From Candidatus Micrarchaeota archaeon (lineage in GTDB: Archaea; Micrarchaeota; Micrarchaeia; Anstonellales; JAGGVH01), in NCBI GenBank assembly GCA_021158105.1, contig JAGGVH010000038.1, positions 11,387-75,386 on the forward strand: DNA of 64,000 nucleotides, read 5' to 3'. Shown here piece by piece: positions 6,354-52,913 of this stretch. The notes beneath the pieces are model-generated. The model saw only the letters and a program-made list of their open reading frames with translations. It was not told the origin of the DNA and searched no databases. The translations under genes and the position numbers were made by a program. Position 1 is the stretch's first letter. Each line of letters starts with the position of its first letter.

Positions 6354-7625
6354 ATGACAAATATAAAGTTTTATTTATTATTTATATTTTCTTTTTTTAT
6401 ACTGATAAACATCTCATCTGCAACCAGTGGGACAACAGTCAACATGTGGTTATACTATGCGATTACAGTCATAATCTCACTACTCCTTGCAGGAATTTAT
6501 TATGCATTGTCACAGGTTGCACAATCTCCACAGGTTGCTGCACAGGCAAAGAACGAGTTCAAATCAGTAATTGGCACAATTATATTAGGAATTATATTGT
6601 ACACTCTAATTTTCGGGACAGATATAACATCTAAAATCATTGGCGGCAGCAGTGATGCAACACTTTGGACTACTGTTCATAACAATGTAGGTTACCAATT
6701 TAACATCTTACAAAAAGGGTTCAGACAATTGCACAGAGGATATTATTTAATAGGCAAGATTGTAGGGTATTCGTACACTGCTACAATTTCATTGCCTTCA
6801 CTTGCAACAAAGTTTGAGTCTGGAATGCCGGGAATAGGATTGAGTACAATCTATGGTCAGTATGGCCAGATTTTCCAAACACTTTCACAAGGCATGCTGT
6901 TCATCATAGGAGAACTTGTCATAATAAAGTTTGCAATATTTGCAGTGCCACTGTTCATATTTCCATTAGGCCTAATCCTCAGATTATTTTCGCCAACACG
7001 AAGATGGGGGTCAACAGTGATTGCATTAGGTATTGGAATGTATTTCATATTACCGTTCAGTGCAGTATTTAACTCGTTGATATACAGGTCATTGGAGGGT
7101 GTTGAACCTGTTGACGGTGCAATTGATGAGATGAATCAGAACATAATGAGCGTTATGCCGATTGATAAACAACCACCGAACAGGTGGCTTATATGTTCAC
7201 CGGTTGTTGTGCCGTTTGCAGCACTCGGTCATTTAGGATTTAGAGCAGCGATAGTATGTGGCCCATTATGTACAATAGAACATGCTGCTGACTTAGGAGC
7301 AGGTTGGTTACCATGTTATATTGGATGCGTTTCTGGGGGAACACCAGAATCTGAATTTTCAGATTTTCTATACTACGTTGCACAACCCGGATATCAATGG
7401 GGATTATCGGGTCCATTAAAGAATTTTATATCAATAAGTGATGCACAGGTTGAACAAATTGGGAAATCAGTGGCGAATGTAATACTTCCAGTCATTTCAT
7501 ACCAATGGATGCTTGCAATGATGTTACCAGTTTTAAATTATATAATAACGATTGGGTTTATACGGTCATTGTCAACCGCTATAGGCGGTGAGGTGTACTT
7601 TTATGGGATTACAAAGATACTTTAA
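6354..7625 (+). CDS. Member A1 of the novel 12-paralog polytopic membrane protein family (N-terminal TM + SPQVAAQAKNE motif; LPxGxxLRxFxxTRxxGG core)
   Basis: N-terminal TM followed by QSPQVAAQAKNEF. Core FPLGLILRLFSPTRRWGSTVIALGIGMYFILPF. C-terminal SLSTAIGGEVYFYGI. An A/T-rich TATA-like element lies about 30 nt upstream. Confidence 0.7.
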   Translation: MTNIKFYLLFIFSFFILINISSATSGTTVNMWLYYAITVIISLLLAGIYYALSQVAQSPQVAAQAKNEFKSVIGTIILGIILYTLIFGTDITSKIIGGSSDATLWTTVHNNVGYQFNILQKGFRQLHRGYYLIGKIVGYSYTATISLPSLATKFESGMPGIGLSTIYGQYGQIFQTLSQGMLFIIGELVIIKFAIFAVPLFIFPLGLILRLFSPTRRWGSTVIALGIGMYFILPFSAVFNSLIYRSLEGVEPVDGAIDEMNQNIMSVMPIDKQPPNRWLICSPVVVPFAALGHLGFRAAIVCGPLCTIEHAADLGAGWLPCYIGCVSGGTPESEFSDFLYYVAQPGYQWGLSGPLKNFISISDAQVEQIGKSVANVILPVISYQWMLAMMLPVLNYIITIGFIRSLSTAIGGEVYFYGITKIL

Positions 7626-8538
7626 GATCACATTACTTGTTGTCATTATGATGATAACAAATACGTTTGCATACAGTTTTAATGATATGAAATCAGACAC
7701 AATTTTATACATGGCGTTTGCAAGCATGCTTTTATTGGTTATACTTACAGGTGCATACATTATCGGAAAAGGATTAAACAATCCGCAACTCGTTGCATGG
7801 GTTAATGTTGAATGGGTGAATATAATCGTTTCAATACTCTTGGGATTGTTTGTTCTTGGGATGTTTTTAGGGATTAATCAGTTTGTTGTTGACAATTATG
7901 GTGATGACATTTACACCACATCATTCAATTATATTGACGGGCTGACTAACGAGGCGTTATCGTTTGCACAGACCGAAACCAAGAGAAGTTTGACTGACCA
8001 GTTTAAGACGACTGCATATGCATTCATCGGCACGCCGATGACTGAATCTGGCGGGTGCGGCAAGTCATACATGGCATATTTTATGGCATCTGCACAGCAC
8101 AGGGACATGGTTGTTGACCTGTTGACAACTGCAGGAATCAGTTTACAACTGCAGAAGTATGTGTTGTACGGTGGGATGTTGGTTGTGATGACGTTTGCCT
8201 TGCCCGTTGGTATAATGTTGCGCATGTTCCCAGGAATACGCAAACTTGGCAATTTCCTGATAGCTGTGGCGTTTGCAGTGGGCATAGTATTCCCGTTAAC
8301 TTATGTAGTCAACAGTGACATGCACAGGAACATATTCAGTTATTCTGGTGGGTCATGCCCTGTAACGACATTGGGAGCTGACGATGAAGTGTTTCCCAAT
8401 GATCCCGCGCATGGGTGTGTACTGTCAAGGATGGCACTGATATTTCCACAGGCGTTCTTTTTCCCGAACATTTCAATGATAATAACCGGTGCATTCGTAG
8501 CAGGACTTATGCAGGCATTGGAGGGGATTAAGGCATGA
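7588..8538 (+). CDS. Family member A2 (likely true start ATG 7603 after GGTGAGGTG)
   Basis: NNPQLVAWVNVEW motif after the first TM. Core LPVGIMLRMFPGIRKLGNFLIAVAFAVGIVFPL. Stop overlaps the next start by 4 nt. Confidence 0.65.
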   Translation: MRCTFMGLQRYFKITLLVVIMMITNTFAYSFNDMKSDTILYMAFASMLLLVILTGAYIIGKGLNNPQLVAWVNVEWVNIIVSILLGLFVLGMFLGINQFVVDNYGDDIYTTSFNYIDGLTNEALSFAQTETKRSLTDQFKTTAYAFIGTPMTESGGCGKSYMAYFMASAQHRDMVVDLLTTAGISLQLQKYVLYGGMLVVMTFALPVGIMLRMFPGIRKLGNFLIAVAFAVGIVFPLTYVVNSDMHRNIFSYSGGSCPVTTLGADDEVFPNDPAHGCVLSRMALIFPQAFFFPNISMIITGAFVAGLMQALEGIKA

Positions 8539-11441
8539 GGAAAAACTGCATGTTAAGTATTATACTTATAATAACACTCTTGACAATGTTAATGCTTGTC
8601 CATACTATGCACGCAACAGGTTATGAAATCTGCGACAATGGTATTGATGATAATGGTAACGGGGAAACTGACGAGTCAGACTGCATACCTGAAAGCATGA
8701 GCGATTATGTTAACAGGATATATTCTGAATGTCAATCAAACTGCTCATTCACTCCAGAATGTGAATACCTTGATATATGTAACTATACCCACAACCATTA
8801 TTGTGCATGGCCCGGTGAAATTGGACAAACATATACAATAACATTCGATGACGGAACTACTACAACTGTCTCAGATTGTGAGAATGATTGTACAGATGGT
8901 CATGATGATGACGGTGACGGGTTGATCGATTGTTCTGACCCGGATTGTATGGGCAGGGAATGTGATTGGTGTGTATTATATGATGATGAGACTCGGATAT
9001 ACTATGATGATGGAGGTATAGGACCTGGACTAGGAGTTGTTTATGCAGACGGTCGTAGAGTAGAAAGTCGGGTAGAAACTAGAATATGTACTGCTCCTGG
9101 CCAACGCAATAATAGTGAAAAAGGACATTGTGATGACAACTTTGATAATGATGGTGATGCATACAATCAACTGTACTACAAAGAAATTGGAACAGGATAT
9201 ATAATGATATATCCTCAATCCGCACCGGTTGACTGTGTAGACTCAGACTGTTATCTTGATCCAATTTGCTGCGGTGATCATGTTTGCAGACCGCACGAGC
9301 AATGCCCTGCAGATTGTGTTAATGAAACATGGTGTCATGATGGTGTTGACAATGACGGTGACCATTTGATTGACTGTGACGACCCTGACTGTAATTCATA
9401 CTTCTTATGCCAAGGGATACACTTTGAATGCCCAACTGGCAACTGCTCAGTTGACATGATTCATGAGATTGAACAGGGCAACCTGTTCCCGTTCAGTCCT
9501 GCGATCAACAGCATGTTAATGGACTGGAAACTTGTATCAGTAATCCTAATCATGTTAGCACTGGTCATCATTGCACTGATTTACATGGCAGGAACAACAT
9601 TCCAAAACCCGCAACTTATTGCGTTTGCAAAACATGAGCTTGGCCAGGTCATTGTGTCAGCAATCTTCTTAGCAATCATAATAGGTGTATTGTTATTATT
9701 AGAAGTTGTATCGTCATACGTCGGCGAACAGGTGTTCGGGTCAGAGTTTGTTTTCACGTCTAACATGAGCAAACATTTTACGATTGCACACATTTATATT
9801 GAGAATGTTAAGGACGTTGGTGTTACAAAGAGCATAGAACTGTTAAAAGAGAATGTTAAGCTTGGCAAACAGATGACACATAGGAAAGGATGGTCTTTGC
9901 AAACATATCCTTATATTTCATATTCCCAAGCACCTGATGCAGGATATAGAATGAAGTATGAAAGGAATAACCAGATCATGCAAGCATACTCTGGCATGAT
10001 TTCAGCATTGAGCGTCCAGGATGCAGTCCTGAGAGGGTTTGCATGGGTGATCGGCCCGTTGCTTATCATGCTTGGAATAATATTCAGGTCATTCTCGTTC
10101 ACGCGTAAGATTGGTGGCATGCTGCTCGCAGCAGGATTAGGTTTATTCTTTGTTTATCCGTTGACATACTCGCTTGCACTGTTTACTCTTGCAACAACAA
10201 TCTATGGCAATTCGCATGCCATGCCACCGCCCACTGACTGCCCAAGCGAATGCTTAATGGAGCTTCCTATTGCATACAACGGGTCAACAAAGTATTACCA
10301 AGAAGACCTGCTCAACCTAACACCGTCTGGCCATTTCTGGAACGACCCTGAAGCAAAAGAGCATATGAAGGATTTAGGATTAAAGTTCTGTGATGATAAC
10401 ATAACTGAAGGCGGATGTTGTCATAATGACATGTGCAATGATACTCAATCGTGCCCGCGGGAATGCAGGAACAAGCCTTTGATGGGCAACCAGTGCGGAT
10501 GCCCATTTGAAGGTTGCGGGAACTGTCCTGATGAATGTAAGATTGTAAGGAACATGAGCGCGTGCACAGACAGACAAACAAGGTTTGTTGAGGACTATTG
10601 CCCTCAAACATTATGCCCTGACGAGTGCAAAAAAGACATAACTGATGCAATAAACGGTAACGAAAGCGGGTGTGGGAATTGCCCGTGGATGTGCAGATGG
10701 CAAGATGATTCTACAACAGGGTGGAACATCTCAACAGACCCAATATGCAAAAATTATGCAAGTGATTGTATAGGGTGTGATGCTAAGTATAAAATGCCAA
10801 ACACAAATGTAATAGAAAAACAATGTGAAGACAACTGTACATGTCCACATTATGACAGGATATTACACGGAGATCACCCATTACCTGGCCACACAAGAAC
10901 AAATTGTGGCAGTTGTCCTGATGACTGCAAGTATGACATGCGTTTTGACCAGTGGCACTTCACATGCGAAGATGCATGCACCTACATTAACGAGACAACT
11001 GATGAAGAAGTAGTGTGTCCTGACGAGTGCAGGTTTGACGAGCAATACATGGCACCTGAATGTTTTGATAATGATTCAATAATCAAAGCATGTGAAAACT
11101 GTCCAAAGTATTGCAAGGTTATGGAAGTTAAACGAACACCGTGCTCAGCATGCATACAATGCAACAATGACTGCACACGAAAACCTGCAGTGCGCACTGA
11201 CTGTGCAGGGTCATGCTTAGCATATGAGGGCGAGTTTACATTAAACCCAGCAGTCCTGGTCAAAGACCTTAGCAAGGTTGCTGCTGACGGCGACCCTGAC
11301 CTGCAGGCAGCAGGGGTATTGATGGTGCCGGCATACATATTACCATTGTTTAATGTTATTTTAACATTAGCATTCATACGAGGGTTCTCCAAATATCTTG
11401 GTGGTGATTATGAAATCCCTGGGATTGAAAAGGTCATCTAA
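8535..11441 (+). CDS. Family member A3 fused to two large Cys-rich ectodomains (968 aa)
   Basis: Signal peptide. N-terminal domain with CxDGxDDDGDGLIDCSDPDC-type Asp/Cys repeats. Then TM + FQNPQLIAFAKHELGQ, core LGIIFRSFSFTRKIGGMLLAAGLGLFFVYPL, a second Cys-rich domain (CPDEC/CGNCP repeats) and a C-terminal TM + FIRGFSKYLGGDYE. Confidence 0.7.
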   Translation: MRKNCMLSIILIITLLTMLMLVHTMHATGYEICDNGIDDNGNGETDESDCIPESMSDYVNRIYSECQSNCSFTPECEYLDICNYTHNHYCAWPGEIGQTYTITFDDGTTTTVSDCENDCTDGHDDDGDGLIDCSDPDCMGRECDWCVLYDDETRIYYDDGGIGPGLGVVYADGRRVESRVETRICTAPGQRNNSEKGHCDDNFDNDGDAYNQLYYKEIGTGYIMIYPQSAPVDCVDSDCYLDPICCGDHVCRPHEQCPADCVNETWCHDGVDNDGDHLIDCDDPDCNSYFLCQGIHFECPTGNCSVDMIHEIEQGNLFPFSPAINSMLMDWKLVSVILIMLALVIIALIYMAGTTFQNPQLIAFAKHELGQVIVSAIFLAIIIGVLLLLEVVSSYVGEQVFGSEFVFTSNMSKHFTIAHIYIENVKDVGVTKSIELLKENVKLGKQMTHRKGWSLQTYPYISYSQAPDAGYRMKYERNNQIMQAYSGMISALSVQDAVLRGFAWVIGPLLIMLGIIFRSFSFTRKIGGMLLAAGLGLFFVYPLTYSLALFTLATTIYGNSHAMPPPTDCPSECLMELPIAYNGSTKYYQEDLLNLTPSGHFWNDPEAKEHMKDLGLKFCDDNITEGGCCHNDMCNDTQSCPRECRNKPLMGNQCGCPFEGCGNCPDECKIVRNMSACTDRQTRFVEDYCPQTLCPDECKKDITDAINGNESGCGNCPWMCRWQDDSTTGWNISTDPICKNYASDCIGCDAKYKMPNTNVIEKQCEDNCTCPHYDRILHGDHPLPGHTRTNCGSCPDDCKYDMRFDQWHFTCEDACTYINETTDEEVVCPDECRFDEQYMAPECFDNDSIIKACENCPKYCKVMEVKRTPCSACIQCNNDCTRKPAVRTDCAGSCLAYEGEFTLNPAVLVKDLSKVAADGDPDLQAAGVLMVPAYILPLFNVILTLAFIRGFSKYLGGDYEIPGIEKVI

Positions 11442-12513
11442 CATTAAACCTATAATAATGTTTATGCTGATTGTGACCAGTGTTAGCTTTGCAAGTTTTT
11501 GGGATTTATTCTTCTTCCCTATAAACAATTGGATGTTAGTGTCAACCATTGCAGTGTTATTATCAGGAGTGCTCTTAGCACTCACATACATGGTCGCACA
11601 ACTTATGAACAACCCTTATATGACAGCAGCAGTCAAGAATGAGCTTGTGCAATGGGCGATAACATCTTTCATTGTCATGGCGTTTGTTATAATACTTCCG
11701 TCCTTGCTGATGATAGTTGCTTCAGGAAGTTTATCTTTTGGACAGGAGTATACTCCACCAACTGGGTTAAGTGGTGAAGAAGTTGGACCGTCAGGTGTAC
11801 TTGTAACATATGTCCAATACGCTGCAGTAAACATAATCAATCAGACAACCGATAACCTCAAAAAATTAGCCAACAGTCTTGACCGTAGGATTCAAGAGGT
11901 CAGTGAACAATCTGCGATGACAGGAATATGCAACTTTTGGCAGGTAGGGTTTTCAATGAGTTTCTGTGGTGCGCTCGGTGCATTGCAAGGCCCGTTGACC
12001 AACGGGTTTAATGTTGTCAACATGGGAATCGCAGAACTTGAAATGTTAAAGGTGCTGGTTGTGATGGGTGGCAACATTGGACTGCTTATCCTGTTCCCTG
12101 CAGGCATAATCCTGCGAACATTTTCAATGACGCGCAAAACTGGCGGGATATTGATTGCATTGGGTTTGGCGCTCGGGATAATCTTACCATTGAGCGTAAT
12201 ATTCTTAAGGTTTACAGTTGACCAATACTATGCACATTACGGTGGGACTAGAATGTATCATGTCCCATATTTTTATGAACATGATGATGACACATGCGAC
12301 GAATTCTCTACAAACTATGACAAACACATGAAGGTTCCCATATATAGATATACTGATGAAGGTTTTCTGCTTAATGTGGCAGAACCGTTCATCTTAGAAT
12401 CTGTAATAATAACACTGGGCTCATTGTTTTTCACATTAACATTCATTACTTCAATGGGTGCACTGTTTGGTATGCCTGTTGACGTATCAGGACTTGTGAG
12501 GTTAGTGCAATGA
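11398..12513 (+). CDS. Family member A4 (likely start ATG 11410 after GGTGGTGA)
   Basis: NNPYMTAAVKNELVQW. Core FPAGIILRTFSMTRKTGGILIALGLALGIILPL. C-terminal LFGMPVDVSGLVRLV. Confidence 0.65.
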   Translation: MVVIMKSLGLKRSSNIKPIIMFMLIVTSVSFASFWDLFFFPINNWMLVSTIAVLLSGVLLALTYMVAQLMNNPYMTAAVKNELVQWAITSFIVMAFVIILPSLLMIVASGSLSFGQEYTPPTGLSGEEVGPSGVLVTYVQYAAVNIINQTTDNLKKLANSLDRRIQEVSEQSAMTGICNFWQVGFSMSFCGALGALQGPLTNGFNVVNMGIAELEMLKVLVVMGGNIGLLILFPAGIILRTFSMTRKTGGILIALGLALGIILPLSVIFLRFTVDQYYAHYGGTRMYHVPYFYEHDDDTCDEFSTNYDKHMKVPIYRYTDEGFLLNVAEPFILESVIITLGSLFFTLTFITSMGALFGMPVDVSGLVRLVQ

Positions 12514-13646
12514 AAAGGGTTATGATATTATTATTGATGATAAACATAACAAATGCAACATTCTGTGAAGTGCCAGAGGCAAACTCATGGCTGTTACCAG
12601 TGTTCATTGCATTATTCATTGGACTTTTGTTGTCAATCATTGGATACTTTGTAAGCTTATTCTTAAACTCTCCAAAAATGGCGGCATGGGCAAAGGTTGA
12701 AGTCAGTCATCTGGGTACTGCAGCGTTTGTTGCAATATTAATATATGGTGTGATGACATTTTCATGTGATAATAATGCAACACTGGTCTTAGGCGCGTCG
12801 TTCTGGCCCACACCATATAACGAATCGATAACTCCTCAAAACTTCTTTAATGCATCAGCAGACTACTTTGACGGAGTAGCAAATACATCTTATAAAGCAA
12901 TAAAAATGATGAGGTATAACTTAGCAGTGGCTTATGTTCGCGCGTCAATCAGCGCGTTCGGTTCACACCCGCACAGTGGTGGAGCATACGGAATAATACA
13001 ATTGTTGGGTGGGCCGTCAACGTCATGGTCAAAGTTCCCTGATGCTTATGTCCAGGTTTCAATGTTTCAGATGGTGCTGCGCACTGCAACTGTTGCATTC
13101 TTTAACATATTGTTCTTGAAAGCAGTGTTTTCATACATATCAACAGGCGTGTTAACAGTAATGCTGCCAGCAGGGATAGTACTCTATGCAATCCCGTTGA
13201 CAAAAAACATTGGTGGTGCACTCATAGCATTAGCAGTCGGCCTGTTTGTGTTCTATCCTGCAATGTTTGCAATATTAGACATTTATTGGCTACCGTATGT
13301 CCAGAGCGAATGGGAGGTTGCTGACGTTCCAACATTAACAGAAGTTACAGGGTTTACATCCCACATTGCACTCAGTGACTTAGTAAGTGCTGACGTGTGG
13401 GACTGGTGCAAACAACCTGAATATATCTACCCAGTAGGCACATATTCAACATGCGACAGCGGTGATACTGGATTTAATAATTGTTATATAAGAATTTATG
13501 ACTTTATGAGTTATACAGGAATATTGACATTGTCAACAGTATTCTTCCCATACCTTGCAATAATCGTGGCGGGCGCATTGACAAGGGAAGTATCAAAAAT
13601 CATGGGGCAGGAGCTTGACATAACACGACTGGCAACCATGTTGTAG
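12510..13646 (+). CDS. Family member A5
   Basis: LNSPKMAAWAKVEVSH. Core LPAGIVLYAIPLTKNIGGALIALAVGLFVFYPA. C-terminal TREVSKIMGQELD. 4-nt overlap with the upstream gene. Confidence 0.65.
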   Translation: MKRVMILLLMINITNATFCEVPEANSWLLPVFIALFIGLLLSIIGYFVSLFLNSPKMAAWAKVEVSHLGTAAFVAILIYGVMTFSCDNNATLVLGASFWPTPYNESITPQNFFNASADYFDGVANTSYKAIKMMRYNLAVAYVRASISAFGSHPHSGGAYGIIQLLGGPSTSWSKFPDAYVQVSMFQMVLRTATVAFFNILFLKAVFSYISTGVLTVMLPAGIVLYAIPLTKNIGGALIALAVGLFVFYPAMFAILDIYWLPYVQSEWEVADVPTLTEVTGFTSHIALSDLVSADVWDWCKQPEYIYPVGTYSTCDSGDTGFNNCYIRIYDFMSYTGILTLSTVFFPYLAIIVAGALTREVSKIMGQELDITRLATML

Positions 13647-13648: not shown

Positions 13649-14746
13649 TTGGGTGGTGAGATGAGGAAGGCATTATTGTTTTTGTTTGTGCTCGGAACAG
13701 TACTGTTTGCACAGGTTGACACAGGCGTAGAATTTAACCAGACAGGTAACGTTTCAACAATGTTGGGGATCAATACACCACCCGGCAGCAGTAGTTATGG
13801 GTGGGCATTGTATGCAATCCTATCATTATTCTTTGTCCTCATGCTTGCTGCGATAGTTTATATGTTAGGAAAATCGTTCAATATACCACAGGCAGAAGCA
13901 TGGGCAAAGGTTGAATTATTAAACATCTTTGGCTCGTTCTTGTTGCTCATTATGATATTAGTAATATTGAACGCAATATATTCAGTGTTTATGGGTTCAA
14001 TGCTGCAAGGCAGTGCATACTGTTTAAAAGAGGGGTATGACGGCAATCATACTATGGACTTTGCAATGTGTAAGGTGCAGGCGCAGATTACTACGCTTGA
14101 CAACCTATGGGCACAGGCTAATGAAGCCAACAAACCACAAGAGGTTGAAGCATCAACATGTTATTCATTATGGGGGCTTACATTATGGTGCGGGGATTGG
14201 TACGGTGACCTGAGGCAGAGGATCGAATCTGCACATTATGTCGGCACAAAAGTTTTAGGGTTGCTGATCCCGTTGCACGCAGAATTTGTCTTGATGCGGT
14301 ACATTGCACAGAACATGTTGGCAGTGTTCTTGCCACTGGGAATCGTACTGCGATGTTTTCCGCCAACCCGTGGACCGGCAGGGTTATTGATTGCGATGAG
14401 TATAGGATTATACTTTGTGTTCCCAGCATTAAACTTTGTCCTTGACCCGTCAACCACACAACCACAGATTGACCAGCCAATAACAAATCAAAAGACTGAT
14501 TATGCATGTTTCCAGGGGTTTAAGAATACCATAACACAAATACAGTATGAAACAGACGTTGAACAGTCACAAATAATGACATATTCCTATGAACAGGCGG
14601 CTGACATAATCGCAGATATTACAATAACAGGACTGTTCTATCCGATGGTGGCGTTTGCGGGTGCTGTGATGTTTATTTATGTCACTGCACCGTTCTTCGG
14701 TGGTGAAGTCATGGACTTCTACAGAGTAGTCAGTAAGATGGTATAG
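13649..14746 (+). CDS. Family member A6 (possible start ATG 13661 after GGGTGGTGAG)
   Basis: FNIPQAEAWAKVELLN. Core LPLGIVLRCFPPTRGPAGLLIAMSIGLYFVFPA. C-terminal FFGGEVMDFYRVV. Confidence 0.65.
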   Translation: MGGEMRKALLFLFVLGTVLFAQVDTGVEFNQTGNVSTMLGINTPPGSSSYGWALYAILSLFFVLMLAAIVYMLGKSFNIPQAEAWAKVELLNIFGSFLLLIMILVILNAIYSVFMGSMLQGSAYCLKEGYDGNHTMDFAMCKVQAQITTLDNLWAQANEANKPQEVEASTCYSLWGLTLWCGDWYGDLRQRIESAHYVGTKVLGLLIPLHAEFVLMRYIAQNMLAVFLPLGIVLRCFPPTRGPAGLLIAMSIGLYFVFPALNFVLDPSTTQPQIDQPITNQKTDYACFQGFKNTITQIQYETDVEQSQIMTYSYEQAADIIADITITGLFYPMVAFAGAVMFIYVTAPFFGGEVMDFYRVVSKMV

Positions 14747-32566: not shown

Positions 32567-33030
32567 TTATTATGGAATGTGAGATATGCGGCAAACATGA
32601 GGCGCGGTATGTTGTAATGATAGAAGGTGCTAAACTCAATGCGTGCCCGGTATGTGCAAAGGGTGCAAAGATCATCTCGGAAATAAAAAACAATGAATAC
32701 AAAACCAAGAAAGGCGGCAAACAATATGAAACTGAGAAAAACAAAACACAGATTGAAAAAGAGGTGTCAGAAGACTATGCAAACATCATAATGCAAGGAT
32801 TAAAAAATATGACGCTCTCGGTAGACGTGCTTGCAGAAAAACTTAACATAAAATATTCTTACCTCAACCACATCGTCCATGGTAAGATCATGCCAGACAT
32901 TAAACTTGCCAGCCGTCTTGAAAAGGAACTTAACATCAAACTTATTGAAGACGTTGTGATTGAAACCGGCGGGAAACAAAAAAAGAGTGATGACAGGTTA
33001 ACCTTAGGCGACATTATAGAGGTGGACTGA
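32563..33030 (+). CDS. Archaeal MBF1-like protein (N-terminal C4 zinc ribbon + C-terminal XRE-type HTH)
   Basis: CEICG...CPVC zinc ribbon, then an HTH (DVLAEKLNIKYSYLNHIVHGK). 4-nt overlap with orc1. Confidence 0.6.
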   Translation: MIIMECEICGKHEARYVVMIEGAKLNACPVCAKGAKIISEIKNNEYKTKKGGKQYETEKNKTQIEKEVSEDYANIIMQGLKNMTLSVDVLAEKLNIKYSYLNHIVHGKIMPDIKLASRLEKELNIKLIEDVVIETGGKQKKSDDRLTLGDIIEVD

Positions 33031-45069: not shown

Positions 45070-45603
45070 TTAATCCATGTTAGTCAAATTCCTGCAATAC
45101 TCCTGCTGTGTCATCCTATCTGCTGAATCCCCAAAAATCATCTTCATAACTTCCTGGTCCGTGTCTGCATAATAATTCTCAACATAATCGCAATAATTAG
45201 AATCATTGGTTTCAGTTGCCAAAAATATAAAGCACTCATTTTTAGATTCTTTATTCTTGATATTACTGCACAGGTTTACAACCTCGGCATAATTATTGCT
45301 GCTTACAGACTGTAACGCCAAATATCTATATATTGCCGATGAAAATAAACATTCATCCCTCCCAAAAGAAGTGCTGATTTTATCACAAACATCAATAACT
45401 TCAATATAAGTGTGGGAAGTGCTCCGCGCCATTGTGTATGCCACAGTCAGGTAACATTCATCTTTGTTTAAATCATTATCTAAATGCCCGCACTGGCTAG
45501 GGTCTGATAATTGATGAAGATGAACACAACCTGTAAACATTAATAATACTAATAGTATAGCAAAACCTATCACACCAATATCACATCTTAATTTTCTTTT
45601 CAT
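45070..45603 (-). CDS. Small Cys-rich lipoprotein-like secreted protein with 3 (D/N)ECxxxxA repeats
   Basis: Signal with FTGC lipobox-like motif. Repeats KDECYLTVAY / RDECLFSSAIY / KNECFIFLATE. Its start abuts the stop of the upstream family gene. Confidence 0.5.
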   Translation of the reverse strand: MKRKLRCDIGVIGFAILLVLLMFTGCVHLHQLSDPSQCGHLDNDLNKDECYLTVAYTMARSTSHTYIEVIDVCDKISTSFGRDECLFSSAIYRYLALQSVSSNNYAEVVNLCSNIKNKESKNECFIFLATETNDSNYCDYVENYYADTDQEVMKMIFGDSADRMTQQEYCRNLTNMD

Positions 45604-46761
45604 TTATATCACCTTTGCCAACCCTCTGGCAATCTCAGTAAGGTCAGCACCCAGCAACAATCCTGCTGAACGTATAAACGTATACAGGCCTGTAAGTGCA
45701 ACAACTGGATAAATCAAAGTGCGGTATATCCACACCACAAACATGTTTGTTGTGATATAAGATATAACTGTCTTAAACAATTTAAACAGACTACCATACT
45801 GCCCCATTATTAAAGAAATATCATCCTTGTCTATCCTGCAATCCTCTGTAATCTCAGTCATCAACCTCACAACCTGCTGATACGACCCAGACTTTTCAAT
45901 ATTTTTATAAAATGCATTCAAAAGGTTTGAAGGATAGATGCCTTCCATTATCACAAAAACATAAACATAAATCGTATGGATAACAAACCCTAATCCCAAC
46001 CCAAACGCCACCAACATCGCACCTGCACCCCTGGTGTTTGGAAACATACGCAACACTATACCCAAGGGTAGTAAGAACGATGCAATGCATGGACCGTATA
46101 ACATCAATTCCATAAACAAATATTGTGTAAATATGATTGTATCAATCTTATCCATAATAAACTCTGTAAATGTCAAAAGCGGAAGACCTATTCTTCCTGA
46201 GAAAAATCCTTTGGGCTTACCGCTATTTTTCACTATGGACGTTTCAGATGCAACTTTTATAGGATAATATACAGTATTAAAAACCTTGTACATGTTCGCC
46301 ATAGTATGCACAGTATCCTTTACAAGAAGCACAGAATAACTGTTAACTGAACTGATATTGTATAATTTAGAATATTTAGGATTGTTGGCTTCTGCATTAG
46401 GTATCACAGTCCCTTCAACATAACCAAACACAGTCGCTGAATCGGGCCATGTGCCGACTGTCACGCCCAACCCAGAGTCATGGGCATAATCTTCGATATC
46501 AAAATCCAATTCTTTAATCACAGTGCCACTTTCAATCATGTGTGATATTGTCAGCACTCTCCCGCCAACTGCCAAAATTTCTATGAACGAAATAAGTATT
46601 ATAACTATCAACACTGTTGAAAACACATCGGCTAAGAACCCCTTTGCTTTAAACTCCAACTCAGATGACTTGAAAAACTTTGCCAACAGATACAATAACA
46701 CTGAAACAATCAATCCAGTCATCATAGAAATTACTACCAACAACATCCAATCATTGAACAT
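45604..46761 (-). CDS. Family member B6
   Basis: Core LPLGIVLRMFPNTRGAGAMLVAFGLGLGFV. C-terminal LLLGADLTEIARGL. Confidence 0.65.
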   Translation of the reverse strand: MFNDWMLLVVISMMTGLIVSVLLYLLAKFFKSSELEFKAKGFLADVFSTVLIVIILISFIEILAVGGRVLTISHMIESGTVIKELDFDIEDYAHDSGLGVTVGTWPDSATVFGYVEGTVIPNAEANNPKYSKLYNISSVNSYSVLLVKDTVHTMANMYKVFNTVYYPIKVASETSIVKNSGKPKGFFSGRIGLPLLTFTEFIMDKIDTIIFTQYLFMELMLYGPCIASFLLPLGIVLRMFPNTRGAGAMLVAFGLGLGFVIHTIYVYVFVIMEGIYPSNLLNAFYKNIEKSGSYQQVVRLMTEITEDCRIDKDDISLIMGQYGSLFKLFKTVISYITTNMFVVWIYRTLIYPVVALTGLYTFIRSAGLLLGADLTEIARGLAKVI

Positions 46762-46773: not shown

Positions 46774-47895
46774 CTATATCATCCGGGTGAGGTTTGCAAC
46801 ATTTAAACTTTCGCCTAATATTCCAGAGATTGTTGTGCTGATGCTTGAAAGGATTAAGATATTAAGCACCGGCAGTAACACACCCCCAATGAATAATGAG
46901 CCGATTATCCCAATCAAGAATACTATATAGAAAAATACTGACAATAATATTGAAATCAAAACTGCATAGTGCAAACCCTTGTCCAACTTTATAAGCACAT
47001 CTGCTATTTTCATTACTCTGCCAGTACCAATATGGCCTTGGAGCCAATGTGCAATGGTTGGGTTTTTCATGGCAGACATTGCAATCTTATTACCACTTAG
47101 CGCCATCCATGACAATACAACAGAACCCGATGCAAGAGTTGCAGGGCCAAGATAATTCTCAGGCATGATTGTCTTCATTATCAACCCGTCCAACATCAAC
47201 AATAGAGGATAAAATATTGATAATGTCAAAACTGCCCCGATGATTGCACCGCCGATAGTCCTTGTTGGCGCGAACGACCTGAACAGAAAACCTATTGGTA
47301 AGAACACCCCAACCATCGGAGACCATGAGAAGTAAAGGATAAATATCTGTGTCATGGCAGAAAGCAACATTACGACAATACTCATCGCACCCAGCCCTAT
47401 AAACAAGTCAACAAATGACTTGACACCGCCGAACGGTGAGAGTGAATTAGTTTCAATGTTGACGTTAGTTCCTGCCACACCACCGGCGGTTGAGTATGTT
47501 ATTGTTGTGACAACAAACATGTCAGATGACCATGTCAAGAACTTTTTAAGGTATGCCATTCCAAAATCAAACGGTGAAACACAATCTGATGTGCCGCAAT
47601 AATAACTCTCATAGTTGCCATCTGCACCAGGCAATGAATCCATCATAGGACCTAAATCAAACCCACACATCCCGGAATATAACATTAAGATAACAATGAA
47701 CAAACCGGTTGTGAAAAACATCTGCATGATCTCATGAGACACCCGCGATGAAAGTTTAGAATTATTCATTATCTTTGACAAGAAATAAATAAACGCATAT
47801 ATCGCAGTACTTATAATCAATATTATAAATGTGTATAATGCCCATTGACCAAACGGCGCACCGCCAGAACATACAGTTTCCATTGTCGTAAACAT
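46774..47895 (-). CDS. Family member B5
   Basis: Core LPIGFLFRSFAPTRTIGGAIIGAVLTLSIFYPL. C-terminal ISGILGESLNVANL. Confidence 0.65.
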   Translation of the reverse strand: MFTTMETVCSGGAPFGQWALYTFIILIISTAIYAFIYFLSKIMNNSKLSSRVSHEIMQMFFTTGLFIVILMLYSGMCGFDLGPMMDSLPGADGNYESYYCGTSDCVSPFDFGMAYLKKFLTWSSDMFVVTTITYSTAGGVAGTNVNIETNSLSPFGGVKSFVDLFIGLGAMSIVVMLLSAMTQIFILYFSWSPMVGVFLPIGFLFRSFAPTRTIGGAIIGAVLTLSIFYPLLLMLDGLIMKTIMPENYLGPATLASGSVVLSWMALSGNKIAMSAMKNPTIAHWLQGHIGTGRVMKIADVLIKLDKGLHYAVLISILLSVFFYIVFLIGIIGSLFIGGVLLPVLNILILSSISTTISGILGESLNVANLTRMI

Positions 47896-47909: not shown

Positions 47910-49307
47910 TCATATCAAACTTACCAATGACGCAAAAGATATTTCAGACCCTAAGAACCGTGAAATGTCCTTTGCAGCTGTCAATGTCACAGTAATATTA
48001 ACCAAAGGCAGTATTATACTTATAATCAACAGGAATGAGACCATGCGCGACATGAACAGTTCAAGTATATGGGCAAACATACCAATTATAAGGGTTGCAG
48101 ACATGATAGGTAGTATAATCTTTAATATTTTGTTAAGGATGTATGCTGCTCCTGCAACCTCATTCGTTGGGACAGGTGAGCCGCCAGAAAGTATACTCTG
48201 CGCTACCGAACTTGCAAAATTAACCCCTACGATTGCTATTATATCACGTGCGAACGATGCCACAAGATTAAGCAGAAACACAGAAGAATACGGTGGAAGA
48301 ATATTGAGTGCAATACTTTTTTTCGTAAAGAATTGTGAAAGAATTTTTAATATCTTAAACCCAGATGCATTGATTATTGCATTGCCATAGTTGACCATCT
48401 GTTTAAAACTGGCATGGAACCAGTCATTAACTATTAATGCATTCATGTATAACATTGCAGGATAGATAAAATACAATGATAACGATAGTGCTATGATCGC
48501 CCCGCCTGCCTTGCGCGTCACAGAAAAATTGCGCATTATCAACCCAAACGGAAGGAACAATTCAATCAATAATGTTGATATGAACTGTATAAACGATGCC
48601 TTGACAACCCATTCTGCCATACCAAGTGCATATGCCTGTATCAATTTACCAAAATACCCTTCCAAAACCATGTAAAAGTTGTTTATATTCAAATCAAACT
48701 GGACAAACCCAAAAGGGATGGCTGGCAGTTCAAGTGTTGACGCCAAATGAACAACAGACTGCATAATTGCCAATGATACAGTATCTACAAGCATAGAATT
48801 CCGAACTGATAATGTATAATAACACGCTGCCTGTTGCAATGTGCACGGTGAATCCAAACCATGAACAGACTGGATTACTTTGGCAATTTGTGGATTGATA
48901 AGCCCTAATAAAAATACAATAAAAAGTATCAGAAATATGTTTGCAATGATTTGATACAACTCCTTTTTCATCCATGCACTAACTGAAGGGTCATTAAAGA
49001 ACATTCTTCCAAAATAAAATAATACTCCTATCACAACACTCAATACTGCTGCAACTGCGATCGGCAGGAACCATCTGCTGCCGATCCCGGGCTGCTCACC
49101 GGGTCCTATACCCGGCGGGTCACACCCCACATTCCCTGACCAGTCAGTAATATTAGTGAAATTCATTATCATTGAAGATTGGTCTTCAGGTGTGGCACCG
49201 AGAAAGTCTGATATAAAAGAACTATGAACATTCATAATAAACAATAACAAAATGAAAAGCATGCACATTTTCAACATCCTTAATTGTTTCCGTCCCATAC
49301 ATACCAC
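47910..49307 (-). CDS. Family member B4
   Basis: FNDPSVSAWMKKELYQ. Core LPFGLIMRNFSVTRKAGGAIIALSLSLYFIYPA. C-terminal SRFLGSEISFASL. Confidence 0.65.
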   Translation of the reverse strand: MVCMGRKQLRMLKMCMLFILLLFIMNVHSSFISDFLGATPEDQSSMIMNFTNITDWSGNVGCDPPGIGPGEQPGIGSRWFLPIAVAAVLSVVIGVLFYFGRMFFNDPSVSAWMKKELYQIIANIFLILFIVFLLGLINPQIAKVIQSVHGLDSPCTLQQAACYYTLSVRNSMLVDTVSLAIMQSVVHLASTLELPAIPFGFVQFDLNINNFYMVLEGYFGKLIQAYALGMAEWVVKASFIQFISTLLIELFLPFGLIMRNFSVTRKAGGAIIALSLSLYFIYPAMLYMNALIVNDWFHASFKQMVNYGNAIINASGFKILKILSQFFTKKSIALNILPPYSSVFLLNLVASFARDIIAIVGVNFASSVAQSILSGGSPVPTNEVAGAAYILNKILKIILPIMSATLIIGMFAHILELFMSRMVSFLLIISIILPLVNITVTLTAAKDISRFLGSEISFASLVSLI

Positions 49308-49343: not shown

Positions 49344-50648
49344 TTATAGAAAGTGTGACAACCCAACAATCTTTGATTCGCCTCCCAAGATATATGAAAA
49401 ATACTTAATCGACGCCACCACTGCATACAATGACAATATTGGTGTTACTATTATATACATAGATAATCGCGCTGCCATGTGCTCCCAGCCACCATAATTA
49501 ACCATGAACGCTCCTATGCCTTTAAACATAGCAGCATCAATGAACGTGCGGAGCACAACATACCACATAACATCAATATAAAACTTAAACGTAAGCAATA
49601 CTACAAACCAAAACAAATTAACAACAAAACCTATGACAGTAGTTATTTTATCCCACAACCATTCAAAAACAGTTTCGGCACCAGTATCATTAACACTTTG
49701 TATTGTGTTATCAAACCTTCCAAATATCTGCAATGCACTCTTATAACTATCCAAATTTGTTAGGTCATTATAAAATACCTTACCCTCATCATTGGTTGTG
49801 AGGTATTTGGGATGGTCTGGATAATAAAAAAAGTGATAGTTTATCATATAAAACAACGGACCTATCAAAAACAATGCCAATGCCAATGCTGCAATAAACC
49901 CACCCAATCTTCGTGTTATATAAAAGTTACGCAATACCATGCCCAACACTAAGAACAAAGGAAATATGACTTGTGAAATTAAATCTAAAGCAAAATACTG
50001 TAAAATTACAATGACATATCCAGTCATAAGGATATCAAACAATTCCTGCATCTGTGCAATAAGTATTGTAAACCCTGCACCGGGATAACTTTTCCAACCA
50101 TACTGGTATGTCCCGAGCTGGATGTATGATTCCCTAAAAACCTTATACAAACTACCCTGGTAGAACACATATGATAATGAATCGCCCGCAAGACCCGCAA
50201 TGTCGTGAAGATTGCGCAGTGCTAAACACACATGGACTGGATAATAAACATATTTCTTGCCAGTGTCGCCTGCATATTCCTTTGTAATCAAACATGTATG
50301 ATTGACACTGTTCCATACTGCACCATGGGTCCAACCATCAGAAATATTATTATAAAGAAGAGTGTTTGCAGCATCGGCTTCTGGAAAAAACATTATGACT
50401 GAATTTTCTATCAACCCGTCTGGACCTAACAATATACCCAATGAAAAGAATATCAACCAGAAAAGTAATATGTTCATAAATGCCTGTCCAATCTCCTTTT
50501 TTGCAAACGCCTCCCACTTTGTATGCTTTAAAATGAGAGAAATAAAGTAAACTATAACAGTAATCGCAAGCGAAATGACAGTGCCAATAACCATTAATAA
50601 CGGCACATTGCCCCAATCAAACATATTCCACGGTTCAAACATTACCAC
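49344..50648 (-). CDS. Family member B3
   Basis: KHTKWEAFAKKEIGQ. Core VLGMVLRNFYITRRLGGFIAALALALFLIGPL. C-terminal FSYILGGESKIVGL. Confidence 0.65.
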   Translation of the reverse strand: MVMFEPWNMFDWGNVPLLMVIGTVISLAITVIVYFISLILKHTKWEAFAKKEIGQAFMNILLFWLIFFSLGILLGPDGLIENSVIMFFPEADAANTLLYNNISDGWTHGAVWNSVNHTCLITKEYAGDTGKKYVYYPVHVCLALRNLHDIAGLAGDSLSYVFYQGSLYKVFRESYIQLGTYQYGWKSYPGAGFTILIAQMQELFDILMTGYVIVILQYFALDLISQVIFPLFLVLGMVLRNFYITRRLGGFIAALALALFLIGPLFYMINYHFFYYPDHPKYLTTNDEGKVFYNDLTNLDSYKSALQIFGRFDNTIQSVNDTGAETVFEWLWDKITTVIGFVVNLFWFVVLLTFKFYIDVMWYVVLRTFIDAAMFKGIGAFMVNYGGWEHMAARLSMYIIVTPILSLYAVVASIKYFSYILGGESKIVGLSHFL

Positions 50649-50657: not shown

Positions 50658-51611
50658 TTATACAAACGATTCAAACCATTTTGTAAACGCATTGATTGAT
50701 GTTGTTGTGACGATTATTGAAAACGTTGGGATGACAACGCCTTGAAATCCTATTATAGTAAACCATACTAAAACCTTATAAAACATATAAAAATATAAAT
50801 GAAACAACTTGTTAAGCCCGGGAATAAAATTTAATACGAGATACATCAAATCCCCCGGTGTTCCCCAAACATTGACAACTGATAAAATACTGGTATCAGA
50901 TATATCTTTAATTTGGTTATATATCACGCCACTTGAAATGATATTGGTCATTATATAACCATTTAATGCATACATTGATATAAAAATTACGTATGATGAC
51001 AAGCCAAGGGCAACCATAAAACTGCCAGCCCTGCGCGTCAGGTCAAAAAAACGCAATATCAATCCTGACGATATAAGGTATGGATAGAATGACATTATCG
51101 TCATGATAACCAACAACTGGACGTATAAACTGCCAAGGAGTGGCGAGATAAACATTATCATATAATTGATTAACCTGTCATACAACGTAAAATCCAATAT
51201 TGCCCCTGTGATGACTGACCCGACTGCAAAGGATACTATTGACTTCAAACTCTGGACAAGGCCAAGCAGACCTATCAACGTATTCAACAACAAAGGAACC
51301 TGATGAAAGATTAATGATGAAAGATAATTGTACACATAATCCTCAATCACTGGTGGTGATGATGGATTAATCATAAAAGAAATCAATCCCGGCGATACCC
51401 CTCTAACACCCATGAATATCATGATAAACAGCAGTATAAACCCAAACAGTAAAGAATTCATTATCGCAGTATGGAGGCGAACCTTTGCCATTGCGATGAG
51501 CTGAGGATTTTTTGTCATATTGCCCCAGTAATGTTCAATGACTGTATAACTAAGATAAATCATCAGTGCAACCACAAATATTATACTCGCCACCAGCATA
51601 CAACACACCAA
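50658..51611 (-). CDS. Family member B2
   Basis: TKNPQLIAMAKVRLHT. Core SSGLILRFFDLTRRAGSFMVALGLSSYVIF. Confidence 0.6.
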   Translation of the reverse strand: MVCCMLVASIIFVVALMIYLSYTVIEHYWGNMTKNPQLIAMAKVRLHTAIMNSLLFGFILLFIMIFMGVRGVSPGLISFMINPSSPPVIEDYVYNYLSSLIFHQVPLLLNTLIGLLGLVQSLKSIVSFAVGSVITGAILDFTLYDRLINYMIMFISPLLGSLYVQLLVIMTIMSFYPYLISSGLILRFFDLTRRAGSFMVALGLSSYVIFISMYALNGYIMTNIISSGVIYNQIKDISDTSILSVVNVWGTPGDLMYLVLNFIPGLNKLFHLYFYMFYKVLVWFTIIGFQGVVIPTFSIIVTTTSINAFTKWFESFV

Positions 51612-52913
51612 TTAAACTTTTATGAACATCCTTCTCATTCTGCCAAATCCCAACAACCCTTCCTCACCACCGATCGCAAGGGAAATGTCTTTCATTGAAG
51701 TCAAGAAAATCATCACGTCTAAAATGAATAATAATAATGCAAGCCCGAACTTCTCAGCATACACAGTATATGATGTCAACAATGTTTTTATGTACGCATC
51801 CATTGAATTCCCAAGCCCTACCTTAAACAATGGCACAAAGAAAAATGAAGCAACCTTGACAAGTGCTTTTATTACATCAATCCCGCCTGCAAAATCTTTA
51901 AGTACATCTGATATACTATCCATTGCATAAACCAATCCCACACCTTGGGGTGTTGTTGATAAAATCTCCTCAAAATCGTGGAGCAATTTAGCATGGTTGG
52001 GTTGAGGGGGATTATTATAACTATCATAACCTATCCCGCCAGTATTGGGCCGTTCAGAACTCTCAGACACTGTTTTCAAATCATTTATTATATTCTTAGC
52101 ATCATTAATGTCATCATCTGACGGCATCTTCTGGTTCATCATATTTTTTGTGTATACCGAATAATCACCCAACATATAATCCGGACCAACTATTGCACTT
52201 ATGGGTTCGCCCCAAACATAATTATCAAGCACCATACTGTTTAGGATTAACAACAACGGATATATAAAAAAACCACAGATCGCAAACGCTATAACAGTCG
52301 ACCCTGTCTTTCGTGTTATGGGAAACGCACGCAACACTACTCCTAAAGGTATGAGATATCTCCACGAAAACACTCTAAAAAAGGTTAACAGCTGCTGTTG
52401 AAAATCTATCAATAGTATTCCAGACAAAGAAAGCAAAGAATACTTTTGAAGAAAAGTTAACAGGAATGAAAACCCTGCCAATGGTGAAACATGGTATATT
52501 AAAAAGTAAAAGCCTGTCCCGCTGAACATCCCAAAATAAAAGAGCGTTATCAAGCTTACCAAGAAGAAATTATAAAAATAATGGTGTAGCGAAACAAGAT
52601 AGATGCGTGCATAAGTAAAATAAAAAGGAGCGAGAATATTACCGCCCGTAGCTGGAAACCCGAACGCTGCACGGATGATAATATCAATGAATACTACTGC
52701 AGAACCCAACAACCCAATTATGAAAATGGTTTTTAATACCTCGCCCAGCTCAGTTATCGCCCACCCTTTCATCTCTGGATAATTGAGAAGCGAAGAAATC
52801 ATGTATGCAAGTGCAACACCAATAACACTAATCATAATGCCTACAAGTATCGCCACAACTGCAAACCCTGATATTATTGGCGTGTTGCCAAGAACCGCAT
52901 AACTTATATCCAA
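51612..52913 (-). CDS. Family member B1
   Basis: NYPEMKGWAITELGE. Core IPLGVVLRAFPITRKTGSTVIAFAICGFFIYPL. C-terminal ISLAIGGEEGLLGF. First gene of the minus-strand array. Confidence 0.65.
   Translation of the reverse strand: MDISYAVLGNTPIISGFAVVAILVGIMISVIGVALAYMISSLLNYPEMKGWAITELGEVLKTIFIIGLLGSAVVFIDIIIRAAFGFPATGGNILAPFYFTYARIYLVSLHHYFYNFFLVSLITLFYFGMFSGTGFYFLIYHVSPLAGFSFLLTFLQKYSLLSLSGILLIDFQQQLLTFFRVFSWRYLIPLGVVLRAFPITRKTGSTVIAFAICGFFIYPLLLILNSMVLDNYVWGEPISAIVGPDYMLGDYSVYTKNMMNQKMPSDDDINDAKNIINDLKTVSESSERPNTGGIGYDSYNNPPQPNHAKLLHDFEEILSTTPQGVGLVYAMDSISDVLKDFAGGIDVIKALVKVASFFFVPLFKVGLGNSMDAYIKTLLTSYTVYAEKFGLALLLFILDVMIFLTSMKDISLAIGGEEGLLGFGRMRRMFIKV

Follow-up and report, generated by a model that had tools for sequence, protein, structure and literature searches.

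The window analysed here is a stretch of 64,000 nucleotides of the 90.5-kb contig JAGGVH010000038.1, from a Candidatus Micrarchaeota metagenome-assembled genome (MAG) of the DPANN archaea, and its proteins carry J7J90 locus tags. It contains two convergent arrays of six genes each, named A and B, which all encode members of one membrane protein family, as well as a single gene for a VirB4/CedB-like ATPase. Profile comparisons support the two arrays as en-bloc duplicates whose members still correspond position by position. The reading we favour, with moderate confidence and from sequence evidence, is that of a chromosomal, Micrarchaeota-wide translocon of the cell envelope, similar to Ced and the type IV secretion systems (T4SS), in which two en-bloc-duplicated membrane sets would share one motor; its function is one that we infer. 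The machine is found widely across the sampled Micrarchaeota, and it may mediate contact or exchange with the host.

Exactly 12 open reading frames (ORFs) of the window, and no others, match the hidden Markov model (HMM) of the family. In the following list, coordinates are those of the window, sizes are in amino acids (aa), and the number in each name gives the position in the array:

6354..7625, + strand: A1, position-1 paralog, 423 aa (family HMM, 203 bits)
7588..8538, + strand: A2, position-2 paralog, 316 aa (family HMM)
8535..11441, + strand: A3, position-3 paralog, 968 aa with 72 Cys (family HMM)
11398..12513, + strand: A4, position-4 paralog, 371 aa (family HMM)
12510..13646, + strand: A5, position-5 paralog, 378 aa (family HMM)
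13649..14746, + strand: A6, position-6 paralog, 365 aa (identical to NCBI J7J90_03440; P0121, 100% identity)
51612..52913, - strand: B1, position-1 paralog, 433 aa (family HMM)
50658..51611, - strand: B2, position-2 paralog, 317 aa, the most divergent member (family HMM)
49344..50648, - strand: B3, position-3 paralog, 434 aa (family HMM)
47910..49307, - strand: B4, position-4 paralog, 465 aa (family HMM)
46774..47895, - strand: B5, position-5 paralog, 373 aa (family HMM)
45604..46761, - strand: B6, position-6 paralog, 385 aa (family HMM)

The six family genes per half described in a first-pass annotation of this stretch, with the sizes quoted there, are reproduced by the ORF map and the family HMM, and the ORF map likewise reproduces every other gene and size quoted. 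The same annotation noted that the paralog sizes run roughly parallel and proposed to check whether positional counterparts are best reciprocal pairs. At the level of single sequences, such pairs are not seen. Identity is 20-27% for all pairs of paralogs, BLAST pairs A2 best with A3, and neither all-versus-all BLASTP nor z-scores of shuffled Smith-Waterman alignments give positional reciprocal best matches. The second-best BLAST matches of family members follow position (B1~C1~A1, B3~C3~A3, B5~C5~A5, and so on), where C1 to C6 denote the six-gene array of locus L072.

The correspondence becomes apparent with profiles. For each position, one profile was built from the orthologs of relatives, and all 720 possible pairings of positions were ranked by their hhalign scores. 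The positional pairing ranks first of 720 both for A-C and for B-C. For A-B it ranks second of 720 with thin profiles, and first of 720 with profiles enriched by the orthologs from L085, L086, L087, L089, and L091. With the enriched profiles, all six diagonal cells of the row- and column-centred A-B matrix are positive, among them A5-B5 (+55, the strongest), A2-B2 (+33), and the weak A4-B4 (+11). The B3-A3 and B3-C3 diagonal cells are also strong. Plain BLASTP and z-scores alone would thus wrongly suggest no correspondence, and profiles with additional orthologs are needed.

Phylogeny and classification point in the same direction. A neighbour-joining tree of 116 family members contains the position clades A1+B1+C1, A2+B2, A3+B3+C3, A4+B4, and A5+B5+C5, with a bootstrap of 57 for A2, B2, and a2 (lower-case names denote orthologs from L082). 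Two arrays held out from profile construction, L094 and L072, were classified against the 12 position HMMs. For L094, the best HMM has the same position in 6/6 genes, all but one of them B-type, and for L072 in 5/6, all A-type. The best HMM of the other array type also falls on the same position in 4/6 genes of each array. A grouping of A members with A members and B members with B members, named in the first-pass annotation as the outcome contrary to a duplication, did not occur; the tree has no multi-position clade consisting only of A or only of B members, which argues for the origin of both arrays from one ancestral hexad by en-bloc duplication.

Several results pull against this interpretation. 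Besides the missing reciprocal matches of single sequences, the position clades have low bootstraps (18-57), resolution is weakest at positions 4 and 6, and profile scores within A (94-177) lie above those between positional counterparts A_i-B_i (86-173), which in turn exceed those within B (46-124). The alternative would be that the arrays arose independently, by tandem duplication at each place, and that the parallel sizes are coincidence or convergence. The lack of positional matches with BLAST and z-scores and the high within-A scores are what this explanation has in its favour. It does not account for a positional pairing that is the best of 720 in three comparisons, for tree clades and held-out arrays that follow position, or for the same six orthogroups occurring in the same order in distant genomes. 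Furthermore, the nearest relatives of B members are A members, mostly of the same position, and not other B members. Independent origin of the arrays is thus largely refuted, and we regard it as very improbable. As within-A scores exceed the A_i-B_i scores, the en-bloc model needs faster evolution in B. The asymmetry is accordingly attributed to more rapid change in B and is not counted against the duplication.

The A/B split is old. All eight complete arrays seen (8/8) contain exactly six genes. The A-type order, together with the trailing lipoprotein and giant protein described below, is kept in L082 at 38-56% identity and in L091, where the array proteins are 25-33% identical to those of A and the ATPase is only 54% identical to that of the window. 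Members of the L091 array match the same-position A proteins with E-values of 1e-30 to 1e-53, versus about 1e-10 for B proteins. A1, for example, has orthologs in L082 (a1, 42% identity) and L091 (27%, E 6e-35), and A2, A4, and A5 also have same-position orthologs in both loci. The B-type order is kept in L085, L086, L087, L089, and L094, and B6 orthologs are 36-47% identical in the first four of these. Because A-type and B-type orders are each conserved in distant relatives, the A/B split predates these lineages. At least three genomes contain both array types, namely that of the window, JAHKLX (L002 and L089), and CAYOKY (L001 and L086). That only half A carries the ATPase, as the first-pass annotation states, holds in the window, and no ATPase lies in the DNA read around any of the five B-type arrays seen (5/5). 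A second ATPase, partner, or coiled-coil gene was not found in the window by tblastn, nor was a pseudogene.

The paralog family is previously undescribed and absent from Pfam, and it has no NCBIfam assignment either. Searched exhaustively with the family HMM, 1.84 billion cluster representatives yielded 3072 family members, counted as 50%-identity clusters; a metagenome scan with B4 as the query gave no matches. All 12 paralogs are polytopic membrane proteins. In A6, hydropathy indicates five transmembrane (TM) segments after a signal sequence, and the AlphaFold 2 (AF2) model of this protein (pLDDT 79.8, pTM 0.74) is all-helical, with five TM helices and additional long helices. Conserved motifs are NxPxxxAxAKxE between TM1 and TM2, LPxGxxLRxFxxTRxxGG between TM3 and TM4, and LGGE at the C-terminus. 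The topology predicted from hydropathy, from an Arg-rich loop between TM3 and TM4, and from the Cys-rich insertions has the N-terminus outside, five TM segments, a large outside loop, and the C-terminus inside. VirB6 likewise has an outside N-terminus, five TM segments, a large outside loop, and an inside C-terminus. The VirB6-like topology of the family is a resemblance, not membership.

Position 3 stands out within the family. A3 carries a Cys-rich extension at its N-terminus and another Cys-rich stretch inserted in an outside loop, and many other position-3-type members (P0157, P0179, P0263, and others) reach 600-1683 aa, where, as in A3, a very large insertion splits the conserved core. 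These insertions point to an extracellular domain that differs between lineages. Matches of the family to T4SS pilin models are limited to three weak one-off cases, none of them significant: one family member against Pfam T4SS_pilin (0.005), and A1 residues 37-86 and one other member against the NCBIfam pilin-like model Mbov_0395 (best 0.0067). An assignment of the single-copy members of the minimal loci described below to position 6 was dropped, as a hint in the tree (bootstrap 31) was not confirmed by hhalign.

Each array is followed by one or two Cys-rich lipoproteins and a giant protein, and half B contains further genes:

14755..18639, + strand: half-A Cys-rich giant lipoprotein, 1294 aa with 65 Cys (lipobox-like LGC; predicted extracellular)
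18576..23645, + strand: half-A giant with signal/anchor and coiled coil, 1689 aa (sequence features, orthologs)
45070..45603, - strand: small Cys-rich lipoprotein directly after B6, 177 aa with 10 Cys (orthologs in L086 and L087)
43896..45065, + strand: opposite-strand gene encoding a coiled coil and a C-terminal TM segment, 389 aa (place conserved in B-type halves)
37931..43690, - strand: half-B giant, 1919 aa (identical to J7J90_03525)
35374..37911, - strand: half-B Cys-rich lipoprotein, 845 aa with 28 Cys (sequence features, L085 ortholog)
34073..34699, - strand: single-TM protein, last half-B gene, 208 aa (L085 ortholog)

The half-B genes listed in the first-pass annotation are all present, and two genes have to be added to its list, 43896-45065 (+) and 34073-34699 (-). 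The former has counterparts in the same place and orientation in L084 (340 aa), L085 (654 aa), and L087 (471 aa, 25% identity). The latter belongs to half B because its ortholog in L085 (49% identical), located after the 853-aa lipoprotein, ends the B module there. ORF 34544-35377 (+) is a conserved neighbour. In its longest form it overlaps the opposite-strand 208-aa gene at the latter's 5' end; as its JAHKLX ortholog is 203 aa long, its true start is probably near 34766.

The three lipoproteins are recognised from their sequences by lipobox-like N-termini (LGC, NGC, and TGC) and Cys counts of 65, 28, and 10. Orthologs of the half-A lipoprotein, which has no Pfam match, follow A6 in L082 (1320 aa) and L091 (1069 aa). 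The 845-aa lipoprotein of half B has an 853-aa ortholog in L085 (39% identity), and the small one has orthologs of 179 aa in L086 and 168 aa in L087. Both giants share an architecture of signal, sequon-rich ectodomain of about 150 aa, TM segment, and more than 1400 aa that are mostly K/E-rich. In the half-A giant, which has orthologs in L082 and L091, the ectodomain is NxS/T-rich, the TM segment lies at about residues 189-211, and the long K/E-rich coiled-coil region is presumably cytoplasmic. The half-B giant has its TM segment at about 163-187, continues into the cytoplasm with a long region, and ends in a Cys/His cluster; its L085 ortholog has 2314 aa and is 30% identical.

Comparison of these proteins between the halves bears out a parallel only in part. 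BLAST finds nothing convincing for giants or lipoproteins. With three-sequence profiles, hhalign aligns the two giants over 46 columns round the membrane-proximal TM segment (92%, E 5.8e-7), in a pattern of a Cys, the TM helix, and then G-x-[SN]-P. The 1294-aa lipoprotein of half A and the 845-aa one of half B align over 59 columns (88%, E 3e-6). Both segments are short, and outside them there is no detectable A-B similarity. The L091 giant matches both the A giant (6e-12) and the B giant (1.6e-6). Homology of the whole 20-kb module is thus plausible from the sequences, yet not established.

The two halves converge on a housekeeping island, as the first-pass annotation describes:

26912..34064, + strand: housekeeping island, outside the machine (domain matches)

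Domain matches confirm pheT, HMG-CoA reductase, Orc1/Cdc6, and FEN1 in the island, which also contains two methyltransferases, a small ORF, and an MBF1-like protein. The first-pass annotation suggested an ancient inverted duplication of a module of about 20 kb behind the mirror image or, as a hypothetical alternative, two co-operating subcomplexes. Of the duplication proposal, the ancient en-bloc duplication of the arrays stands, and the local inverted duplication as the origin of the mirror image does not. In JAHKLX, half A with the pheT-orc1 island lies on contig 25 (L002) and the B array on the 286-kb contig 3 (L089). There, the B array is flanked by genes for a geranylgeranyl reductase and an M17 peptidase, as upstream of B1 in the window, and what comes directly after B6 is the 203-aa gene together with dCMP deaminases, giants being absent. 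The B halves of L085 and L094 have other neighbour genes, and in L091 the array is divergent from the ATPase gene and its partners. The mirror image is lineage-specific because placement round the pheT-fen island is not conserved in relatives, and the juxtaposition of the two halves round the island is, from the sequences compared, a lineage-specific arrangement.

It might still be argued that the mirror image is functional or original, the result of a local inverted duplication or of selection for convergent, co-regulated halves. The halves do converge on one 7-kb island containing orc1, and the linkages of the ATPase trio with pheT on the A side and of the geranylgeranyl reductase and M17 peptidase genes on the B side are each conserved. 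However, the separate contigs and the different sequel to B6 in JAHKLX, the other neighbours in L085 and L094, and the divergent array in L091 do not fit this idea. Moreover, self-blastn of the window detects no DNA-level repeat between the halves, and the A/B split is older than lineages whose ATPases are 54% identical. We therefore consider a functional or original mirror image improbable. The non-chance part of the pattern is the positional correspondence of the paralogs; the convergent orientation is not significant by itself because it is one of few possible arrangements. A peak in cumulative GC skew at about 34 kb was considered as a replication origin, but it coincides with the switch of coding strand and is not read as evidence.

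The linkage to pheT is an observation in its own right. pheT often comes after the trio, and in the window, L001, L002, and L092 it is the next gene behind that of the coiled-coil protein. The linkage of this gene for an aminoacyl-tRNA synthetase subunit is kept between lineages with ATPases only 54% identical.

The motor and its partners are encoded behind the half-A giant:

23650..24450, + strand: 2-TM partner of the ATPase, with both TM segments N-terminal and a cytoplasmic domain, 266 aa (gene immediately upstream of that for the ATPase)
24484..26016, + strand: VirB4/CedB-like P-loop ATPase, 510 aa (Pfam, NCBIfam, Foldseek)
25973..26761, + strand: coiled-coil protein with a C-terminal winged helix, 262 aa (third member of the trio)

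The label "VirB4-like" for the ATPase is borne out at the superfamily level by Pfam, NCBIfam, and Foldseek. The protein matches Pfam DUF87 (9e-18) and AAA_10 (2e-12) and, among NCBIfam models, CedB (1.6e-24), VirB4-like CD1110 (3e-19), CedD (1e-18), and HerA (5e-16). The top Foldseek match of its AF2 model (pLDDT 86) is the VirB4 ATPase domain 4ag5 (E 1.6e-16, TM-score 0.78). Its Walker A motif occupies residues 66-73, and no long N-terminal domain is present. Matches to HerA cover only the P-loop domain or the C-terminal part and start well inside HerA, at about model position 140 and later. A HerA-NurA DNA-end resection helicase, which would have an N-terminal HAS-barrel domain and NurA/Mre11/Rad50 as neighbours, was rejected on the basis of the Walker A position at 66, the P-loop-only matches, and neighbours consisting of membrane proteins and pheT. 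More than 1000 homologs of the ATPase were found, and all those with a name belong to Micrarchaeota or Micrarchaeota lineages, at 45-86% identity.

The trio of ATPase, 2-TM partner, and coiled-coil protein is present in 72-80 of 80 Micrarchaeota loci. The 2-TM partner is encoded directly upstream of the ATPase in 74/80 ATPase loci, and the coiled-coil gene occurs in 72/80. The first-pass label "VirB3-like" for the 266-aa partner, which matches nothing in NCBIfam or among PDB sequences, describes architecture and position only. The C-terminal winged helix of the 262-aa protein (window 26600-26758) matches the CdvB (ESCRT-III) domain 2xvc with an E-value of 2.4e-4. This winged-helix domain of CdvB is described as mediating protein-protein contact, and the match therefore hints at protein recruitment, not DNA binding, as the role of the 262-aa protein.

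Many genomes have minimal loci that consist of the trio together with only one family gene and, upstream of this gene, an 81-aa 2-TM ORF (present in L017). The gene content of these loci parallels CedA1/CedA/CedA2/CedB (PMC9905601, PMC11868833).

Variation among the ATPase loci was also noted. The A-type locus L072 has two tandem 2-TM partners (271 and 274 aa, L072:8341-9981) and two multi-TM ORFs (117 and 123 aa) upstream of its six-gene array. Some genomes contain two paralogous ATPase loci, namely L017/L073 (JBAZFC010000001.1), L019/L063, L014/L065, and L015/L024. One type of ATPase has about 478 aa and is accompanied by a single family member (in L017 with the 81-aa 2-TM ORF upstream), and the other, of about 523 aa, lacks any family member in the surrounding 10 kb.

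A literature search found no published description of this system. Its closest parallels are the Ced and Ted machines, which are chromosomal, T4SS-derived DNA exchange systems of Crenarchaeota (CedA/CedE, CedA1, CedA2, CedB/CedD; TedA-C) (PMC9905601, PMC11868833). Like these, the Micrarchaeota system is chromosomal and archaeal and lacks a relaxase, and the best NCBIfam match of its ATPase is CedB. A small TM protein is encoded directly upstream of the ATPase, and a 5-TM polytopic protein is present; CedE also has five TM helices (PMC11868833). As in Ced, the minimal loci combine a small 2-TM ORF, one family member, and the ATPase, and paralogous membrane or ATPase components occurring together is a theme there as well (CedA/CedE, CedB/CedD). 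The differences are equally evident. Twelve membrane paralogs form two fixed-order hexads here, as opposed to one or two in Ced, and the tools used detect no resemblance of the family to CedA or VirB6, either in sequence or in fold. Moreover, unlike Ced, the module includes Cys-rich giant lipoproteins as well as proteins in the range of 1700-2300 aa. A pilin-like gene is missing from the window, and the ATPase is far below the CedB cutoff.

Amplified membrane components are known from the rvh T4SS of Rickettsiales, which has four or five tandem VirB6 paralogs, some of them greatly extended. As here, the rvh components are encoded at several chromosomal sites and share ATPases, whereas the system is a bacterial diderm T4SS with VirB7-11. 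It resembles the Micrarchaeota arrays in the tandem amplification of polytopic components in an obligate symbiont and in very large extensions, such as those of A3 and its 600-1683-aa relatives. In contrast, the rvh paralogs are recognisable as VirB6, and there is no evidence there of a conserved hexad duplicated en bloc.

Patescibacteria/Candidate Phyla Radiation (CPR) epibionts have a conserved chromosomal T4SS centred on VirB4 (PMC12102498). These, too, are ultra-small, host-dependent lineages with reduced genomes, and their VirB2-like pilins are tandemly amplified and highly divergent. Whereas VirB3/PrgI, VirB6, VirB2, and TrsD are detectable by HMM in CPR, only the ATPase is detectable here, and domain of life and envelope differ as well. 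The SPEARE-type giant proteins of nanohaloarchaea contain a VirB4/TraG-like ATPase domain and are proposed to act on the host (PMC10266531). Both cases couple DPANN giant membrane-anchored proteins genetically to VirB4-like ATPases. In SPEARE, however, the ATPase domain is fused into the giant, the ectodomain consists of immunoglobulin-like repeats, and no 5-TM hexad is described.

A number of findings weigh against a translocon of the Ced/T4SS kind. All NCBIfam matches of the ATPase lie far below the curated cutoffs; against the CedB model it scores 86 bits, where the cutoff is 700, and because of this gap it is not regarded as a CedB ortholog but as a superfamily-level match only. DndH-C and HerA are close structural seconds to VirB4 for its model, and the 2-TM partner, as stated, has no match in NCBIfam or among PDB sequences. 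For the paralogs, a scan of 83 members at E <= 1 shows no recurrent Pfam family, TrbL/VirB6 included. PDB sequences contain no match to the family profile at E <= 10, and a Foldseek search with the A6 model gives no PDB match at E <= 0.001. No small TM-containing, pilin-like ORF lies between the genes, within, or beside the halves, and no ORF of the region has relaxase or coupling protein domains, nor an integrase domain.

These gaps leave room for a machine functionally unrelated to T4SS and Ced, in which a HerA-type ATPase would power another envelope process, e.g., export of surface or S-layer proteins, cell division, the uptake of lipids, or the building of a surface filament or of a dock for nanotubes. 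Such a function would agree with the lack of VirB6, VirB2, and VirB3 similarity, with HerA and DndH as close structural neighbours of the ATPase, and with the resemblance of the partner's winged helix to the protein-binding one of CdvB. It would also suit the 21-nm envelope barrel, not assigned to any protein, that docks host nanotubes in cryo-electron tomography of Micrarchaeon ARM-1 (PMC11329633). Three points favour the Ced/T4SS-like translocon instead. The CedB and VirB4-like families rank above HerA for the ATPase, which lacks the long N-terminal region of its HerA matches (Walker A at 66 versus about 140 and later), and the gene content of the minimal loci parallels Ced. A function outside T4SS and Ced is accordingly seen as somewhat unlikely, but as a possibility to be taken seriously.

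Another question is whether the region represents a mobile element, conjugative and integrated or of another sort, rather than a core machine of the cell. The nearest named families of the ATPase are conjugation ATPases, and T4SS-like genes in archaea are often plasmid-borne (PMC9905601). A mobile element is nevertheless hard to reconcile with more than 1000 ATPase homologs, of which all named ones are from Micrarchaeota at 45-86% identity, and with the conserved flanking synteny (pheT, geranylgeranyl reductase, and M17 peptidase). The region has no integrase, relaxase, or coupling protein, no tRNA gene was found in the window, and there is no clear compositional break, with 28 to 44% GC across the window and 34-44% in the halves. 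The probability of a mobile element is thus considered very small.

For the Ced/T4SS-like translocon, the following mechanism is proposed. Long ago, an ancestral array of six genes, probably along with the lipoprotein and the giant behind it, would have been duplicated en bloc, giving rise to an A-type set linked to the motor and a faster-evolving B-type set without a motor. One copy of each of the six paralogs might come together as a hetero-oligomeric ring or platform in the membrane, and this assembly would dock on the ATPase, which is presumed to be hexameric like ATPases of the HerA/VirB4 type. The Cys-rich lipoproteins would form the extracellular, host-facing part, and the giants would tether the complex via their long cytoplasmic coiled coils. 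The A and B sets may represent two variant complexes acting on the same ATPase, in parallel to CedA/CedE and CedB/CedD (PMC11868833). Such a machine could move DNA or other macromolecules between the DPANN symbiont and its host.

A more daring version, which we hold to be unlikely in its entirety, assigns the six paralogs to the six subunits of a hetero-hexameric ring matched one-to-one to the presumed ATPase hexamer. Two such rings, each with its own lipoprotein and giant tether, would share the motor and form a DPANN-host translocon or docking structure, such as the ARM-1 barrel (PMC11329633). The family would then be a new channel fold and not a diverged VirB6.

Some further observations concern other parts of the window and a related strain. 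An archaeal RNase P RNA is encoded in full length at 59754-60029 (+) (Rfam RF00373, 126.9 bits). A 40-bp direct repeat (92.5% identity; 60596-60635 and 61704-61743) brackets about 1.1 kb without a convincing gene, where a 506-aa ORF at 60167-61687 (+) looks spurious; this stretch may be an insertion remnant or a degraded gene. The methyltransferase ORFs 80-493 and 28502-29113 are 38% identical over 69 aa, and the first may be a fragment. L084 is a strain variant with 99-100% identity (JGI 3300016457) and shows a fold-back of B1 segments at the start of its contig (L084:1-870). Inside its B3, an inverted duplicated piece of 425 bp (L084:3215-3639, corresponding to window 50145-50569) truncates the protein to 268 aa. 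As the window has no flanking inverted repeats there, the fold-back and the inverted piece are not read as a shufflon but as probable artefacts of assembly or amplification, real variation being the less likely reading.

No machinery has been assigned to attachment and exchange between DPANN archaea and their hosts in Micrarchaeota, and the region provides a conserved candidate. This candidate is defined by a VirB4/CedB-like motor with two fixed partners, a family of about 3000 clusters, and strict arrays of six paralogs. The fixed number and order of the paralogs predict a defined hetero-oligomer. Besides its putative role at the host interface, the system illustrates cleanly how, in a reduced genome, a whole operon was duplicated in the distant past and its two copies then diverged asymmetrically.

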